A stretch of DNA of 64,000 nucleotides from Candidatus Nomurabacteria bacterium. Lineage in GTDB: Bacteria; Patescibacteriota; Patescibacteriia; HK-STAS-PATE-3. The notes under the pieces are model-generated. The model had not been told where the DNA came from. It saw only the letters and a program-made list of their open reading frames with translations, and did no database searches. Position numbers and translations under genes: made by a program. The DNA lies in the NCBI GenBank assembly GCA_023898465.1, contig CP060223.1, positions 800,001 through 864,000 on the forward strand, written 5' to 3'. Shown here piece after piece: positions 11,427-56,619 of the stretch (its first letter is position 1; each line of letters opens with the position of its first letter).

Positions 11427-12875
11427 TTACGAACGCGGCGTGTCGCCAACAATAATCACTGGTGTGCCCACTTCGGCAAACTCGTACATCCACTGTGCAG
11501 CATCAGTTGGTAGATTTGAACAACCATGACTCATAGGATGTCCAAAATTATTGTGCCAATATGCGCTGTGAATACCATAGTCGCCGTTGTAGTACATAAC
11601 CCATTCTACGTTTGGGAGATAGTAACCTGGCCCGCTCATAACCTGACGACGCACCTTGGTGTACACCTTATATTCTCCTGGAATAGTTGGTGTTGCCGGA
11701 CGACCGCTGGAAATTAGTGTGTAGTATTGCAATACACCATCCTGAAAAGCAAACATGGTCTGCTTATCTAAGTCAGTGTAAATAAGCTTACCCTCATTGC
11801 GAGGCGCACTTACCTCTAAATACTCTGTTGACTTTGCGATGGTATGAAAGGGAATGGTGATTTCGTTCTCACCCTGACCGATCCACTGTGCATCTAAGAA
11901 AGTAATGAGTCGATCAATATCTACCTCGCGACCATCCTTCCCCTCACTGATTGGCTTTGTCTCAGCCACTGACTCGTATCGTTTTTCTGACACAGGCTCC
12001 TGACGAAGTGTAGCGAGTCGCGTTGCAAAAAACTTCTTTGCTGTCTCTGAGAGAACAGCGAGGTGCCAACCATCCTCATCTTCACTAACTGTTAGCCAAG
12101 GTAATACATCGTCTTCTGTCATTTCAAATTCCTCGTCCTCGCTCACTAAGCGAAGTGGAGCACTGAGGAGATCGGCTGCCTGCTCAGCTAAGGGCTGCAG
12201 TATAGCAGTGTCCTGCATTGCTTCAGCAGCTACAAAGGCAACGGAAATATCTGTCTCATCTAATCGAATCGCCTGCTGTAAAAGTTGTGCCTTTAACAAA
12301 TCCTGGTCAAGCACATTACCTGTCTTACCACCACGGAATTGTAGATCTCCGCCATGGTGTACCAGAGTTGGTTGTAGCGGCGCCTGATCAAGCTGCTCAG
12401 CCAACCAGGATAGATAGGCATCGAGCTCAGGCTCATGAATCACAACGCTGGCAAGTACTTCATTGTCTGATCCAGCGTGCACTGGTGGCACAAACCATTT
12501 TCCTAACAAGCTTGTACGGCCAGTGTGAAAAGCTTGTGCTACTGTCTGCGTAATATCAACACTTAAACCTAAATCGCTAAAGCGAGGCGTCCAAGCTTCT
12601 TCACCATAGCGGATAGTAATAGGCTGCTGAGCGTAGTCACTTACGTATTGCTCAATTGCTGCCTCCGCCTGTGCGACTGCTAAACCGCCCACATCAACCG
12701 GGCCAATATGAATGCCCGGGTAAATTTTTTGTTGTAGGAGTTGCGCATAGCCAAAAGACAGTACCGCTAACACTGCGACCACGGAGAGCGGCGCGCTTAG
12801 CCATAGAAAAATGCGCGACTGGTGCCAGCGCGAAGTCTGCTCTCGAGATGGAGAATAGCGTACCCCCTTGTGCAT
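11427..12875 (-). CDS. L,D-transpeptidase (YkuD catalytic domain) with N-terminal TM and large extracellular region
   Basis: C-terminal catalytic motif GIHSAYWHNNFGHPMSHGCSNLP. The track ORF starts at a TTG at 12947, but a TTGACT-17-TATACT promoter lies at 12919-12947, so the likely start is the internal MHKG about 12875. Confidence 0.75.
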   Translation of the reverse strand: MHKGVRYSPSREQTSRWHQSRIFLWLSAPLSVVAVLAVLSFGYAQLLQQKIYPGIHIGPVDVGGLAVAQAEAAIEQYVSDYAQQPITIRYGEEAWTPRFSDLGLSVDITQTVAQAFHTGRTSLLGKWFVPPVHAGSDNEVLASVVIHEPELDAYLSWLAEQLDQAPLQPTLVHHGGDLQFRGGKTGNVLDQDLLKAQLLQQAIRLDETDISVAFVAAEAMQDTAILQPLAEQAADLLSAPLRLVSEDEEFEMTEDDVLPWLTVSEDEDGWHLAVLSETAKKFFATRLATLRQEPVSEKRYESVAETKPISEGKDGREVDIDRLITFLDAQWIGQGENEITIPFHTIAKSTEYLEVSAPRNEGKLIYTDLDKQTMFAFQDGVLQYYTLISSGRPATPTIPGEYKVYTKVRRQVMSGPGYYLPNVEWVMYYNGDYGIHSAYWHNNFGHPMSHGCSNLPTDAAQWMYEFAEVGTPVIIVGDTPRS

Positions 12876-12918
12876 TTGTAATGTGAAATTTGTGTTGTTT
12901 TTTGACTTTTCATATATG

Positions 12919-12947
12919 AGTATAGCAAAAAAATCGTCGAAAGTCAA
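12919..12947 (-). promoter_or_regulatory. sigma70-like promoter TTGACT-17-TATACT (minus strand) for the L,D-transpeptidase gene
   Basis: Forward agtcaa 12942-12947 and agtata 12919-12924. Spacer 17 nt. Confidence 0.45.
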
Positions 12948-12956
12948 TATTATCTA

Positions 12957-13090
12957 CCCGCCCTCTCACCCGTCATTGCGAATCCCGATGCATATCGGGA
13001 TGAAGCAATCTCGTTACTCAAACTCACGGGATTGCTTCGTCGTTCGCTGGACTCTCTCCTCGCAATGACGGGAGGAAGCGAGAGGGCGGT
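12957..13090. other. 133-nt complex palindromic element (23-bp interrupted outer stem enclosing two hairpins) between truB and the L,D-transpeptidase promoter
   Basis: ccgccctctc(a)cccgtcattgcga pairs with tcgcaatgacggga(ggaagc)gagagggcgg. Inner hairpins atcccgat-gcat-atcgggat and gaagcaatc…gattgcttc. Confidence 0.4.
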
Positions 13091-13136
13091 TAATAAAAAT
13101 CACGACAAGGCAGAGACGCCTTATCTGTGTGTCTAC

Positions 13137-13820
13137 TTATGCAAAGAAAGTAATAGGCCGAAGATGTTGTGTGAAGTCTGCGCCCTGAAGATCTGACAAG
13201 GTGCTGGCGTCTCGTACATTCCATTTGCCAATTGCCGTACGTCGCAATGCACGTAAGTACGCGCCGCATCCCAAAGCCTCACCAATGTCACGCGCTAAGG
13301 TGCGGATATAGGTACCTGACGAGCACTCTACTTCAAGCTTCAGCTCTGGCCATGCATATGTACGGATACGTATGGCATAAATTTCTACTTCCCGCTCAGG
13401 TAGCTCTACTTCCTCGCCGCGCCGCAAGCGACGATAGGCTGGTACGCCACGGATCTTAATAGCCGAAAGCGCTGGAGGAATCTGTCGAATCGGTCCTTGA
13501 AACTTTTTTACCGCTGGCAGGATATCCTTCTTCCGTAATGGATGCAGATCCTCTGTTTCGGTAATCACTCCATCACAATCATCAGTATCACTTCGAGCAC
13601 CTAAGCGCAGGGTGGCCTCGTAGGTCTTAGTCGTATCTAGGGTAAGTCCACCCAAATGCTTTGTCGCGGCACGTCCCACTCCGACTATAAGCAAGCCAGT
13701 AGCAAAGGGGTCAAGCGTGCCAGCATGCCCCACCCGTTGCACTCCACTGGATCGTCGCACCCGGTTCACCACATCGTGCGAAGTCATACCTGCAGCTTTA
13801 TCGATAAGGAGAAATCCTTC
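13137..13820 (-). CDS. truB: tRNA pseudouridine(55) synthase TruB
   Basis: Motifs GHAGTLDPFATGLL and downstream TruB core. Start taken at MEGFLLIDK. Confidence 0.85.
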   Translation of the reverse strand, partial: EGFLLIDKAAGMTSHDVVNRVRRSSGVQRVGHAGTLDPFATGLLIVGVGRAATKHLGGLTLDTTKTYEATLRLGARSDTDDCDGVITETEDLHPLRKKDILPAVKKFQGPIRQIPPALSAIKIRGVPAYRRLRRGEEVELPEREVEIYAIRIRTYAWPELKLEVECSSGTYIRTLARDIGEALGCGAYLRALRRTAIGKWNVRDASTLSDLQGADFTQHLRPITFFA

Positions 13821-13891
13821 CATACCCATAAGTGTACAGGGGGCACGTAACAAGTGACAACAAGGCATATTTGCTACTTTCCTGTTAGCCC

Positions 13892-18557: not shown

Positions 18558-20042
<1,485 letters not shown>

Positions 20043-44942: not shown

Positions 44943-45041
44943 CTTTTTCTTTTACCACGGCGAGGCAGAGAAGTCCCACCTATGTGTTTATTATTACCCA
45001 ATAGCCAAGGCGTCCCGGCCTTGGCAGTTTTTTTCTTTTAC
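44943..45041. repeat. REP-like palindromic element copy 1 (core gccaaggcgtcccggccttggc) with 13-nt flanking direct repeat tttttcttttacc
   Basis: About 85 nt shared with copies at 45881 and 48593. Internal inverted repeat gccaaggc/gccttggc. The same 13-mer occurs at 44945-44957 and 45028-45040. Confidence 0.5.
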
Positions 45042-45880: not shown

Positions 45881-45965
45881 CTTTTTTCTTTTACCACGGC
45901 GGGACAGAGACGCCCCTCCTATGTGCTTATTATTACCCCATAGCCAAGGCGTCTCGGCCTTGGCG
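45881..45965. repeat. REP-like palindromic element copy 2
   Basis: cttttttcttttaccacggcgggacagagacgcccctcctatgtgcttattattaccccatagccaaggcgtctcggccttggcgg. Confidence 0.5.
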
Positions 45966-46058
45966 GAGCTTATGAAGACTTGAAAAAAACACATGTTCGT
46001 GTATGATGGCCTCGATCACATAATGTACCTTGCAGATAACAAGTAGGAGGTATCAGAC

Positions 46059-48427: not shown

Positions 48428-48994
48428 TTATGTAAAACCTTTTTCCTCATATGCGTGATAAGAAGACCAATTCCAATCCTTTGGATCTTTTACCAAGCTA
48501 GCACGTACTGGATTGTAGTGGATATAATGAATGAGATGGTGGAGATATTGGTCAGTATCTACTACGCGGTCATAAAAAGAATCTTGCCATATCTTTTTCA
48601 TGCGACGGCGGGACAGAGACGCCCCGCCTATATGTTTATTATTACCCATAGCCAAGGCGTCTCGGCCTTGGCGGGGTATATCGGCGTCTCGGCCTTGGCG
48701 AGACTTATACATTTGTTGAGTCGTATAACTTTTAATACTATGCATCACCTCCGACACATTCTTCTTCCCTATTATCTCAAACAACACATGGATGTGATCT
48801 GGCATCACCACGTAGGCTAGCAGCCGTATCCAATGTTTCTTATGCAAGAAGAACAGAGTCTCAACGACAATCCTGGAGAGTTCTTTATTCAAGAATAGCT
48901 TTTTCCGTCGGTGGGTATTTGCGGTGACAAAATACACCCTTGTTTCAGCGTTGTAGGTACGACGAAGACGAGACATGAGGACACCTCGTGCCAC
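48428..48994 (-). mobile_element. REP-associated tyrosine transposase (RAYT; IS200/IS605-like Y1 HUH) with in-frame REP-like insertion between HUH and Tyr motifs
   Basis: HUH motif MPDHIHVLF. Catalytic Tyr motif HYIHYNPV. REP copy 3 (48593-48700) lies in-frame inside the ORF and encodes …RQGRDADIPRQGRDALAMGNNKHIGGASLSRR…. Confidence 0.65.
48593..48700. repeat. REP-like palindromic element copy 3 (with tandem duplication of ggcgtctcggccttggcg) embedded in the RAYT ORF
   Basis: Sequence shared with copies 1 and 2. The duplicated 18-mer lies at 48656-48673 and 48683-48700. Confidence 0.5.
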
Positions 48995-56072: not shown

Positions 56073-56183
56073 CGCAACCCGAGGCGTCTACTTTCCCCAA
56101 GTAGGCGCCTTTCTTCTTGACTTTTTTATCTAAGTGGATAAACATGCCCACGGACACTGTTCGACAAACCATAGGAGGCGCAC

Positions 56184-56542: not shown

Positions 56543-56619
56543 GCCGCCATCGTCTAGTCTGGTCAGGACGCCAGGTTTTCATCCTGGTAACAGGGGTTCG
56601 AATCCCCTTGGCGGTACCA
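56543..56619 (+). tRNA. tRNA-Glu (anticodon UUC), CCA encoded
   Basis: Acceptor gccgcca/tggcggt. Anticodon stem ccagg/cctgg with loop ttTTCat. T-arm agggg-ttcgaat-cccct. 3' ACCA. Confidence 0.85.

Follow-up and report, generated by a model that had tools for sequence, protein, structure and literature searches.

REPINs and the RAYT transposases, reportedly described by Bertels and Rainey in 2011 and by Nunvar and coworkers in 2010, belong to the systems that come closest to the locus analyzed here. A REPIN consists of two inverted REP units with a short spacer, forms one long hairpin and is non-autonomous; singletons occur as decay products, and hairpin-forming single-stranded DNA is presumed to be the substrate. 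The units carry GTAG tags, copies of these REPs lie on both sides of the cognate RAYT gene, and the enzyme mobilising GTAG REPs is this RAYT, an HUH Y1 transposase. REPIN families are lineage-specific and vertically inherited. MITEs such as the Correia elements, Nezha and QMITE1/2 are also short, non-coding and dispersed, with inverted termini and long hairpins.

The CGTC REPs (Di Nocera, De Gregorio & Rocco 2013, BMC Genomics 14:522) carry the tag CGTC (or TGTC/CCTC) and have an AT start. Each unit comprises an 8-9-bp stem beginning with A/T, a loop of 4-5 nt and a CCA tail, and the units are arranged in head-to-head dimers, mostly heterodimers, with spacers of about 20-100 bp (PMC3733652). 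They are present in multiple copies per host genome, mainly in Alphaproteobacteria, with five phyla listed and no dedicated transposase. No CGTC-type repeat has ever been shown to transpose, and an enzyme that mobilises them is not known; copy numbers differing between taxa led Di Nocera et al. to argue against a general chromosomal role. Neisseria dRS3 and the Rickettsia palindromic elements RPE-6 and RPE-4 are assigned to CGTC-1 and CGTC-4 (PMC3733652).

The palindrome studied here lies between truB and an L,D-transpeptidase gene (ldt) in a window of 64 kb, the whole stretch of DNA that was analyzed. It very probably represents a non-coding palindromic DNA repeat that occurs in dispersed copies, namely a CGTC-tagged REP-like doublet. 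The initial annotation had described a palindrome of 133 nt; the palindrome as such was confirmed, and its structured part measures 132 nt (12958-13089). The outer stem of 10 bp (CCGCCCTCTC, 12958-12967, with GAGAGGGCGG, 13080-13089; 10/10 paired), the second stem of 13 bp (CCCGTCATTGCGA, 12969-12981, with TCGCAATGACGGG, 13060-13072; 13/13 paired) and the first inner hairpin (ATCCCGAT, 12982-12989, loop GCAT, ATCGGGAT, 12994-13001) are present as annotated. What had been taken for a 6-nt bulge proved to be an internal loop (1 x 7) with A12968 opposite AGGAAGC (13073-13079). For the second inner hairpin the arms GAAGCAATC (13002-13010) and GATTGCTTC (13030-13038) had been placed correctly, but instead of 9 bp with a 20-nt loop the + strand offers 13 bp (13002-13014/13026-13038) including one G-T pair, with a loop of 11 nt. 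The 21 nt at 13039-13059 in the junction are unpaired. RNA folding, a check that had been proposed, gave -75.9 kcal/mol for the + strand and -75.6 kcal/mol for the - strand as compared to about -40 to -42 kcal/mol for shuffled sequences (z = -8.5 and -8.3, respectively; 0/200 shuffles as good), and the DNA fold of the two strands has z = -10.6 and -8.3. The element is indeed far more elaborate than a terminator, and the cause is simple: the arms of a heterodimeric repeat are unlike each other. The three-way shape results because one arm contains a tip hairpin and the other a non-complementary insert of 21 nt.

Two repeat units can be delineated. Unit A (12971-13012, + strand) is composed of the CGTC tag (12971-12974), ATTGC (12975-12979), GA, the tip hairpin ATCCCGAT-GCAT-ATCGGGAT (12982-13001), GAA, GCAAT (13005-13009) and the tail CTC (13010-13012). 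Unit B (13028-13070, - strand) contains the CGTC tag (GACG at 13067-13070 on the + strand), ATTGC, GA, a long-arm insert of 21 nt (13039-13059, GGAGAGAGTCCAGCGAACGAC), GAA, GCAAT and the tail CCC. The tags are thus on the outside, and the inverted units are separated by a spacer or terminal loop region of 15 nt (13013-13027), slightly short for a CGTC REP dimer; at this position both sequence and length vary across related copies. Folded alone, unit A forms a REP-like DNA hairpin (-11.5 kcal/mol, z = -3.9, 0/200 shuffles as good) with a tip of 8 bp and a 4-nt loop, whereas unit B is without a significant hairpin (z = -0.5 to -1.1). In the terms of Di Nocera et al. 2013 the element is a head-to-head heterodimer, with a design comparable to that of REPINs. 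The two units pair via an outer module P1 (CGTCATTGCGA/TCGCAATGACG, at 12971-12981 and 13060-13070) and an inner module P2, made up of the arms GAAGCAATC/GATTGCTTC, both invariant in sequence, while the tips differ between units; each unit follows the scheme CGTC, ATTGC, GA, variable tip hairpin, GAA, GCAAT and short tail.

Based on these modules an ATTGCGA/GAAGCAAT palindromic doublet family was defined operationally in this analysis by P1 (two halves 60-90 nt apart), P2 and, in one or both arms, a variable tip that forms a hairpin and separates ATTGCGA from GAAGCAAT; the window copy has P1 at this distance and the tip in unit A. A genome scan with P1 only returned at least 120 stretches, about 2 being expected by chance according to our own estimate, which takes into account the length of the pattern and the size of the database. 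An exact P2 octamer (GAAGCAAT or ATTGCTTC), absent from the query, was found in 110 of the 126 P1-selected matches listed, and the window copy contains it as GAAGCAAT(C) ... (G)ATTGCTTC, a feature that was not used for retrieval of the family. An HMM constructed from the P1-selected matches recognized the window element with E = 8e-18 and gave no other match in the 64 kb. The window element belongs to this family. By independent retrieval, the long-arm motif GCTTCGTCGTTCGC-N8-CTCCTCGCAATGAC was detected at 91 metagenome loci; the partner arm GTCATTGCGA is located upstream in 50 of the 88 scorable loci, the remainder being solo arms.

The same or a compensated unit A tip hairpin also occurs in L212, L210, L183, L193 and L152. 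Across these relatives 5/8 tip pairs show compensatory changes, and P1 and P2 are invariant. L212 shares the architecture of the window copy as well as its tip (ATCCCGAT/ATCGGGAT) and is, together with L210, the closest architectural match. Both are on non-CPR contigs, and the neighbor of the L212 copy is a PorE/T9SS-type protein, pointing to Bacteroidota. The unit B long-arm variant ..GGACTC(A/T)CTCC is common to the window copy and L152. Among the matches listed, copies are found in Proteobacteria, Bacteroidota, Chloroflexota, Omnitrophota, Margulisiibacteriota, Spirochaetes and CPR, with Bradyrhizobium, sphingomonads, Rickettsiales, Pedobacter, Mucilaginibacter, Anaerolineae, Omnitrophota, Margulisiibacteriota, Spirochaetaceae and Daviesbacteria as hosts; a genome-wide absence of the family from many taxa is contradicted by these members. 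In addition, the P1 pattern is present in 74 IMG/VR contigs, and a consensus family member matched 10 plasmid records from five genera. The window copy itself gave no blastn match to plasmids and phages because the shared modules are too short. No further copy was detected in the 64-kb window with a 24-mer (3 mismatches), an 11-mer (1 mismatch), window-wide repeat analysis or the family HMM, and about 85 kb of related CPR contigs contained no copy except for a solo arm in L001.

Heterodimers account for 168/233 across the family, and solo arms and both orientations occur. The copies are mostly intergenic and their contexts are unrelated; in low-GC contigs 38 lie between tandem, 10 between convergent and 2 between divergent genes, and 3 are inside an ORF. 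Orientation relative to transcription showed no significant bias (14 vs 7, a small sample). Within 1.5-2 kb of the copies no partner gene was enriched at the at least 120 genome and 91 metagenome loci. The suggestion of a MITE or REP-type mobile palindrome made in the initial annotation is thus supported by hundreds of copies in unrelated genomes and contexts, by solo arms and both orientations, and by the variable presence of the element at its orthologous site described below.

The family-conserved core ends close to the tags, as conservation of the flanking sequence does not extend further than about 1-3 nt outside the CGTC/GACG ends. Both halves of the outer palindrome (CCGCCCTCTC, 12958-12967, and GAGAGGGCGG, 13080-13089) are located outside. 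Outer palindromes of at least 7 bp were found for 7% of doublets as compared to 2% of controls, with a different sequence in each; the L226 copy is flanked by a similar pair, CCCTCTCAC/GCGAGAGGG, and 17 arms have CTCTC-N-CGTC flanks. The 10-bp outer palindrome is no part of the family core.

GCGAAGC, GCGCAGC, GCGGAGC and GCGTAGC are the commonest arm tips, and longer tips are dominated by GNA triloops. GCGNAGC is a mini-hairpin DNA motif (PMC13037366); the arm tips of the family are DNA-type mini-hairpins. This bears on the structured sRNA that had been considered initially. A separate gene for a small structured RNA (about 130 nt) would agree with the strong multi-helix-junction fold and with a weak promoter-like match (ATGACG-16-GATAAT, 9/12) overlapping the edge of the element. 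However, both strands fold equally well, as expected for a DNA palindrome, solo half-elements, which an RNA dependent on the whole fold would not tolerate, are common, and the tips are of the DNA type. Rfam 15 yielded nothing for the element at the gathering threshold and only a chance snoRNA (15 bits) at E-values up to 10; 16 loci with typical family members gave nothing relevant, and ARAGORN predicted neither a tRNA nor a tmRNA there. Since a strong promoter and an orientation preference (in the small sample given above) are also missing and orthologous truB-ldt spacers show no conservation of the element, the sRNA finds no support, and we give an RNA gene practically no credence.

Among the described systems, the doublets resemble the CGTC REPs, especially CGTC-3 of Bradyrhizobium/Rhodopseudomonas, with which ATTGC...GCAAT is apparently shared. 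Back-translation of the CGTC-3 peptide VIAGLDPAIH would, by our inference, read CGTC ATTGCCGGG CTTGA CCCGGCAAT CCA. Both groups have terminal CGTC tags, head-to-head and mostly heterodimeric dimers whose tags face outwards, an occurrence centered on Alphaproteobacteria but covering several phyla, A-T/T-A ends, an intergenic location between tandem or convergent genes, no adjacent transposase and, in the consensus, a CCA(G) tail, and some dimers are nested in lineage-specific outer palindromes. The family consensus reads GCAAT-CCAG, where the window tails are CTC and CCC. The 8-9-bp stem and 4-5-nt loop of the published unit are not found in this form: the AT start is present, but ATTGC/GCAAT provides a stem of 5 bp, beyond which come a GA/GAA internal loop and a separate, variable tip, in the family commonly the 7-nt GCGNAGC mini-hairpin. 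Neisseria dRS3, RPE-6 and RPE-4 share the superfamily tag and unit format, whereas their stem sequences differ; RPEs are also often in-frame inside genes, whereas the window copy is intergenic. Canonical CGTC-1 units, e.g. CGTC ATTCCCGC GAAA GCGGGAAT CCAG, co-occur in loci of the doublet family. In a comparison with CGTC-1 to CGTC-4 that is based on text descriptions and peptides, the characteristic peptides of the doublet family are absent from the published intragenic peptides, and CPR, Chloroflexota, Omnitrophota and Margulisiibacteriota extend beyond the five listed phyla. The supplements of PMC3733652 contained no sequence matching the family, and the family was not found in Rfam or, by sequence and peptide signatures, in the searchable literature. 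That the doublets are a distinct, uncatalogued family of the CGTC superfamily, which may be horizontally mobile across phyla as single-stranded DNA with GCGNAGC tips via a trans-acting enzyme, is a speculative extension to which we assign a rather low probability.

With REPINs the element has in common the two inverted units with a short spacer, the single long hairpin and the non-autonomous nature, and singletons and a presumed single-stranded hairpin substrate also apply to the doublets. In contrast to the GTAG-tagged REPINs with their cognate RAYT, the doublet family has CGTC tags and no linked RAYT, and it keeps near-identical modules across phyla. MITEs are similar to the element in the general properties listed above. 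However, inspection by eye showed no target-site duplication next to the outer stem or the P1 core, an autonomous IS whose ends match was not found, and solo arms and head-to-head units are REP traits. An integron attC site was rejected, as RYYYAAC/GTTRRRY core sites were not seen by eye at the ends and the copies are not in cassette arrays. A link of the repeat to small GIY-YIG nuclease genes and to the recurrent spurious peptides LRFARND, SLRGAKRRSN and LLAMT was considered. The nuclease link was dismissed: no neighboring protein family, and thus not GIY-YIG either, is enriched at the at least 120 genome and 91 metagenome loci, and L124, with the only GIY-YIG gene encountered, lacks an element in its vicinity. 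Full-text searches for these peptides and DNA strings found only unrelated papers and primers.

At the locus itself, truB (13137-13823, - strand, 228 aa, stop side at 13137) encodes a protein with the Pfam domains TruB_N (1e-47) and TruB_C_2 that is 100% identical to P0001, the TruB of Candidatus Nomurabacteria bacterium. The co-directional ldt gene (11427-12875, - strand, probable ATG at 12875) has YkuD and PG_binding_4 domains (Pfam) and is preceded by a TG-extended sigma-70-type promoter, TTGACT-17-TATACT (12919-12947, - strand), downstream of the element. A terminator scan detected a terminator-like hairpin after truB (13104-13128, - strand), AGATAAGGC-GTCTCT-GCCTT followed by GTGATTTTTA. 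The position exactly between the truB stop and the promoter, as initially stated, is right as to the flanks but overlooks this hairpin (13125-13104 on the - strand). As the element lies between the hairpin and the ldt promoter, it is therefore predicted to be in neither UTR. At this site the scan reported the hairpin at 13125-13104 and not the element, and mixed sequence follows both ends of the element, which does not correspond to an intrinsic terminator.

The orthologous site was compared in related contigs, among them L001 and L002, whose sources are SRR32105342 and SRR17818317. In L001, L003, L124 and L129, truB is followed by ldt orthologs of 482-489 aa. The truB-ldt synteny is kept without the element in L003, L124 and L129, where the spacer measures 60-63 nt, and L127 is without the element although its annotated spacer comprises 208 nt; in all four the homologous promoter directly adjoins the truB stop. 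In L001, whose TruB is 85% identical, the corresponding position holds no more than a solo long arm, in the orientation opposite to the homologous window arm. The terminator-like hairpin is kept in L002. The orthologous site thus varies in the presence of the element, which was inserted into a truB-ldt spacer of ancestrally about 60 nt.

These data also address a domesticated cis-acting RNA hairpin at the 3' end of the truB mRNA that would serve as a stabiliser, back-up terminator or insulator of the ldt promoter, as some E. coli REPs have been proposed to act. The element follows truB and precedes the ldt promoter, and the two genes run in the same direction, a typical REP context; it is very stable as RNA, and one G-U pair in P2 is tolerated on the + strand only, which is antisense to truB. 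On the truB strand, however, the terminator-like hairpin and its T-run precede the element, and most truB transcripts should therefore end before reaching it. The lack of a T-run after the element on either strand, its absence from the spacers of L003, L124, L127 and L129 with only a half-arm in L001, and the lack of a significant orientation bias in the family likewise argue against such a role, which we regard as improbable.

The terminator-like hairpin belongs to a different family, being a singleton of ATAG-tagged REPs: an HMM of the repeat at 44951/45890/48599 matches 13098-13143 with E = 2.8e-12. The window also encodes a RAYT transposase (48428-48976) that is linked to ATAG-tagged REP doublets, one of which is inserted in-frame within the RAYT gene. 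The RAYT carries an insert of 33 aa, and one ATAG REP is located at 45001-45025. The element, with its CGTC tags, has no adjacent transposase; within the window the closest Y1 transposase lies at a distance of 35 kb and is tied to this other, ATAG-tagged repeat. RAYT was rejected as a cis partner of the doublet family, as tblastn of the window RAYT revealed no homologue in 2.17 Mb of family loci (296 loci).

The conservation of P1 and P2 in sequence, beyond what pairing requires and across phyla, implies recognition by a sequence-specific factor, presumably a protein. By analogy to E. coli BIMEs, with their nucleoid or gyrase/IHF-type binding, a host protein might use the element as a DNA site, or another mobile element might use it as an IS110/IS1111-type landing pad. 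REPs are known insertion targets; in Coxiella, for instance, IS1111 inserts into the GTAG REP of QMITE2 (PMC5896051). Across the 296 loci, though, the family is accompanied by no protein or IS of this kind, and copy numbers differ enormously between taxa; we consider this reading highly improbable. For a protein-binding site dedicated to the truB-ldt locus, as had also been considered initially, conservation gives no indication.

Taken together, the element is most plausibly regarded as selfish or neutral DNA that forms hairpins and is of the CGTC-tagged REP-like type. It would propagate, or once have propagated, as hairpin-forming single-stranded DNA, with the enzyme probably acting in trans and encoded elsewhere. 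At the truB-ldt locus it would have no dedicated function and at most place a further hairpin in the way of truB read-through towards the ldt promoter; a side-effect on local transcription is conceivable. Points against this reading are the arm geometry and tails, which depart from the published format, the outer palindrome outside the family core, the lack of any demonstrated transposition or known mobilising enzyme for CGTC-type repeats, and the single copy in the 64-kb window, with only the L001 solo arm in the related CPR contigs; a multi-copy state in the Nomurabacteria host beyond the window is unproven.

For annotation, the element should be masked as a repeat and not be listed as an sRNA, riboswitch or regulator, and short ORFs crossing it, e.g. 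13032-13196 (...SLLAMTGG...), are repeat artefacts. If the doublets do form a distinct and horizontally mobile family, a 1-Mb CPR genome with one doublet beside a RAYT-associated REP, and with a RAYT gene, would be a minimal natural test system, in which cross-mobilisation of CGTC repeats by RAYT could be tested. The near-identical modules of 9-11 nt found from Bradyrhizobium to CPR, as well as on plasmids and viral contigs, should provide a handle for finding the factor that may recognize them.

The palindromic element at 12958-13089, between truB and the L,D-transpeptidase gene (ldt), contains every stem listed in the initial annotation: an outer stem of 10 bp (CCGCCCTCTC/GAGAGGGCGG), a second stem of 13 bp (CCCGTCATTGCGA/TCGCAATGACGGG), a first inner hairpin of 8 bp with a 4-nt loop (ATCCCGAT-GCAT-ATCGGGAT) and a second inner hairpin (GAAGCAATC/GATTGCTTC). 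The pairings are as described there, but the two outer stems are separated by a 1 x 7 internal loop and not by a 6-nt bulge, and the second hairpin is longer, reaching 13 bp when extended on the + strand. At the junction, 21 nt (13039-13059) are unpaired. The folding check proposed with the stems showed both strands to be far more stable than shuffled sequence, with z = -8.5 and -8.3 for the two strands as RNA and -10.6 and -8.3 as DNA, and with 0/200 shuffles as good in either case. Such equal stability on both strands is the pattern expected of a DNA palindrome. Arm A (unit 12971-13012, + strand) folds alone as a CGTC-type unit (z = -3.9), and no comparable hairpin was obtained when arm B, the long arm (unit 13028-13070, - strand), was folded alone. 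Two ORFs, 13032-13196 (+) and 12868-13068 (+), of 54 and 66 codons, span the repeat and code for peptides derived from it (...SLLAMTGG...); gene prediction could list them as hypothetical proteins.

A structured sRNA had also been considered. In the element, Rfam gave no match at the gathering threshold, its sole match at E values up to 10 being a chance snoRNA of 15 bits, and ARAGORN reported nothing. A known RNA family is thus ruled out as the identity of the element, and the sRNA reading is unsupported. Elsewhere in the window, the weev_FSE match of Rfam at 56083-56109 (-), scoring 40.1 against a gathering score of 40, is almost certainly due to chance, since it is merely a GC-rich 11-bp hairpin near tRNA-Glu (56543-56619). 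A complete 16S rRNA gene is present at 18559-20042 (-), and no 23S or 5S rRNA was found in the 64 kb at the Rfam gathering threshold, which points to an unlinked rRNA operon, an arrangement typical of CPR bacteria.

Sequence comparison places the element in a very large repeat family, whose members are palindromic doublets sharing a paired outer module within the second stem (P1) and a paired inner module within the second inner hairpin (P2). With the second stem alone as pattern (CGTCATTGCGA-N60-90-TCGCAATGACG) and one genome per species, at least 120 stretches were retrieved, against an estimated chance yield of about 2 (22 specified bases, 31-step gap). The consensus among the matches listed is CGTCATTGCGAG-(GAGCGAAGCGAC or small hairpin)-GAAGCAATCCAG-variable loop-CTGGATTGCTTCG-(CTTCGCTC or hairpin)-GCAATGACG. 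An exact inner octamer, GAAGCAAT or ATTGCTTC, which also occurs in the window element, is present in 110/126 of the matches listed, and both octamers in the correct order in 67/126. Since these matches were selected by the outer module only, the definition of the family is not circular. An HMM of the genome matches listed, from which the window sequence was left out, recognized the window element with E = 8e-18 and found no further copy in the rest of the window. A second, independent retrieval with the other arm (GCTTCGTCGTTCGC-N4-12-CTCCTCGCAATGAC), common to the window and L001, a contig of a truB-bearing relative, yielded 91 metagenome loci. The partner arm GTCATTGCGA lies upstream in 50 of the 88 scorable ones, the remainder being solo arms. 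Several metagenome doublets have exactly the architecture of the window element, and one locus, L212, carries an identical tip hairpin (ATCCCGAT/ATCGGGAT). When the window element was aligned with six such doublets, P1 and P2 were sequence-invariant, and the tip hairpin showed compensatory changes at 5/8 pairs, with pairing kept in every case.

Among the genome matches listed, the majority come from Bradyrhizobium and other Alphaproteobacteria. Others come from Gammaproteobacteria, Pedobacter, Mucilaginibacter, Sphingobacterium, Anaerolineae and Chloroflexia, and further ones from Omnitrophota, Margulisiibacteriota and Spirochaetaceae, deltaproteobacterial and CPR Daviesbacteria MAGs. The pattern occurs on 74 IMG/VR contigs, and a consensus member matches 10 plasmid records (Novosphingobium, Methylosinus, Methylocystis, Aulosira, Legionella), with at least 40 places on one 1.76-Mb Novosphingobium replicon. 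The copy on pNL2 is unannotated and lies between two co-directional genes. Among the closest matches to the window element are two non-CPR contigs: that of L212, which is Bacteroidota-like, with GyrB and a PorE/T9SS-type neighbour, and L210, with TolB-like and fatty-acid-oxidation genes.

The genomic context of the family copies is REP-like. On contigs of low GC, where simple ORF calling can be relied on, 38 copies lie between co-directional, 10 between convergent and 2 between divergent genes, and 3 inside an ORF. All-against-all comparison of the ORFs within 1.5-2 kb of the copies revealed no enriched partner gene, the sole clusters being junk ORFs running across the repeat. Doublets of a long and a short arm predominate (168/233), and in tandem contexts arm order showed no significant bias relative to transcription (14 vs 7), a sample of 21 having little power. 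In locus L159, four long-arm copies occur within 5.6 kb (28-63, 202-237, 2256-2291, 2482-2517), two with an upstream partner or degenerate partner arm and two solo; here and in L146 the arms have conserved extended flanks (...ctattagggatt / atattttcacgtcctacgtccc...), so that the CGTC arm seems to belong to a larger repeated unit. In L038 (2746-2883), L205, L216 and L217, CGTCATTGCGA is partially reiterated in tandem and units abut (GCAATGAC directly followed by GTCATTGCGA), which suggests duplication in place or insertions nested at the tag.

Di Nocera, De Gregorio and Rocco (2013; PMC3733652) distinguished REP superfamilies by their tags, GTAG and CGTC. As described there, CGTC repeats have a terminal CGTC tag, stems starting with A and T and a CCA tail; they form mainly head-to-head dimers, i.e. 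with the tags outside, with 20-100-bp spacers and frequent heterodimers, occur in five phyla with Alphaproteobacteria predominating, are at times nested in lineage-specific palindromes, and are described as lacking an associated transposase. Each family arm reads CGTC-ATTGC-GA-[tip]-GAA-GCAAT-CCA(G) with the tags outside, and owing to this layout the family fits the superfamily description, although its arms deviate from a simple stem of 8-9 bp closed by a loop of 4-5 nt. The intragenic peptides published for CGTC-1 to CGTC-4 (VIPAKAGI, VIAGLDPAIH, VIPWLDHGI and others) do not contain the signatures of the family. By back-translation, CGTC-3 shares ATTGC...GCAAT with it. Canonical CGTC-1 units, e.g. 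CGTC ATTCCCGC GAAA GCGGGAAT CCAG, occur elsewhere in family loci. The element thus fits the CGTC superfamily, CGTC-1 to CGTC-4 having been compared by text and peptides.

Between CGTCATTGCGA and GAAGCAAT, the tip found most often is GCGAAGC (77 arms), followed by GCGCAGC (23), GCGGAGC (8) and GCGTAGC (7), and GNA triloops dominate in longer arm tips. GCGNAGC is the "mini-hairpin DNA" motif, described as extraordinarily stable (PMC13037366). Because the fold is strand-symmetric, solo arms are frequent, the stems are sequence-invariant and no orientation bias was detected in the small sample, the hairpins are likely to matter in single-stranded DNA, where they would act like REP/RAYT (REP-associated tyrosine transposase) and IS200/IS605 substrates. 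The REP-type mobile palindrome suggested initially was right as to kind, given the family and its CGTC layout; mobility itself we infer.

Conservation of the family flanks is gone within about 1-3 nt of CGTC/GACG, which puts the 10-bp outer palindrome outside the family core. Outer palindromes of at least 7 bp accompany 7% of doublets compared to 2% of controls, and their sequences differ between lineages. L226, a copy on a viral contig, has a similar outer pair (CCCTCTCAC/GCGAGAGGG), and a CTCTC-N-CGTC flank occurs at 17 arms. The outer stem may mark an extended sub-variant of the element, or else a target that was itself palindromic. Certain lineages have each of their doublets nested in a lineage-specific outer palindrome of its own (L013 and L027 of a Solimonas MAG; L210, L212, L183, L155, L181), e.g. 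CAGTTTGAAAT.../...ATTTCAAACTG and ATAAAGTC.../...GACTTTAT. The H. neapolitanus case (PMC3733652) and the outer stem of the window are both parallels to this nesting.

On the - strand, the truB stop (13137) is followed by a hairpin that resembles a terminator and has a T-run (13125-13104), then by the element, a TTGACT-17-TATACT promoter (12947-12919) and the YkuD-type ldt (ATG at ~12875). The order of stop, element and promoter given in the initial annotation therefore stands, but the terminator-like hairpin also intervenes. As the element lies past the likely truB terminator and ahead of the ldt transcription start, it is predicted to be in neither UTR. The truB-ldt order is kept in relatives. 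In three of them (L003, L124, L129) the spacer measures 60-63 nt and the truB stop lies directly against the -35 box of that promoter; it likewise does so in L127, where the element is absent and the annotated spacer is 208 nt. Thus, the element and the preceding hairpin are insertions in the lineage of the window. In L001 (TruB 85% identical), the corresponding position, 9 nt ahead of the -35 box, holds no more than a solo long arm (GCTTCGTCGTTCGCTTCGCTCACTCCTCGCAATGAC), which lacks the outer stem and, relative to truB, is oriented oppositely to the homologous arm of the window. In L002 (TruB 89% identical) the sequence past the conserved hairpin differs, and then the contig ends. Scanning ~85 kb of these relatives with the family HMM gave no copy apart from the L001 arm. 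Such turnover speaks against a conserved role at this locus, and a reading as a dedicated site is not supported. A perfect 8-bp inverted repeat (TTGACTTT/AAAGTCAA; 12902-12909 and 12940-12947), partly kept in L001, frames the ldt promoter, reaching from the -35 box to slightly beyond the -10 box; it may be an operator or merely a second -35-like box on the opposite strand. At 12949-12976 (-), the repeat end ATGACG and a downstream GATAAT together resemble a promoter (9/12 match, 16-nt spacer), so that the repeat terminus can mimic a -35 box.

The window also encodes a RAYT at 48428-48976 (-), in a CPR genome, identified by NCBIfam NF047646 (REP_Tyr_transpos; 122-124 bits, cut-off 80), Pfam (Y1_Tnp, 1.3e-11) and PDB, the best solved relative being E. 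coli TnpArep (4ER8, E = 1.7e-12). Its in-frame 33-aa insert (RQGRDADIPRQGRDALAMGNNKHIGGASLSRRR, at about 48600-48700) is a copy of an 82-nt repeat of the window also found at 44944 and 45883. This repeat is a doublet of inverted hairpin units, ATAG-CCAAGGC-GTCYCG-GCCTTGG and ATAG-GCGGGGC-GTCTCTGT-CCCGCC, with the ATAG tags inward and an AT-rich spacer between them; it is similar to a GTAG-type REP doublet and probably represents the cognate repeat of the RAYT. Doublets lie at 44944-45034, 45883-45973 and 48592-48708; in the first, the right-hand unit with its T-run is intrinsic-terminator-like. The truB terminator-like hairpin is an ATAG singleton (13098-13143), and thus two different REP-type elements adjoin in the truB-ldt spacer. 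The RAYT of the window shows no cis link to the CGTC family, as a tblastn search of 2.17 Mb of family loci gave no homologue.

Overall, the element is an ordinary, poorly catalogued repeat, selfish or neutral, which adds a member in a further phylum to the CGTC-tagged kind of REP. To our knowledge, no enzyme is known for CGTC repeats. The significance of the element lies mainly in the question of what moves these repeats and in the striking constancy of the two modules across phyla.
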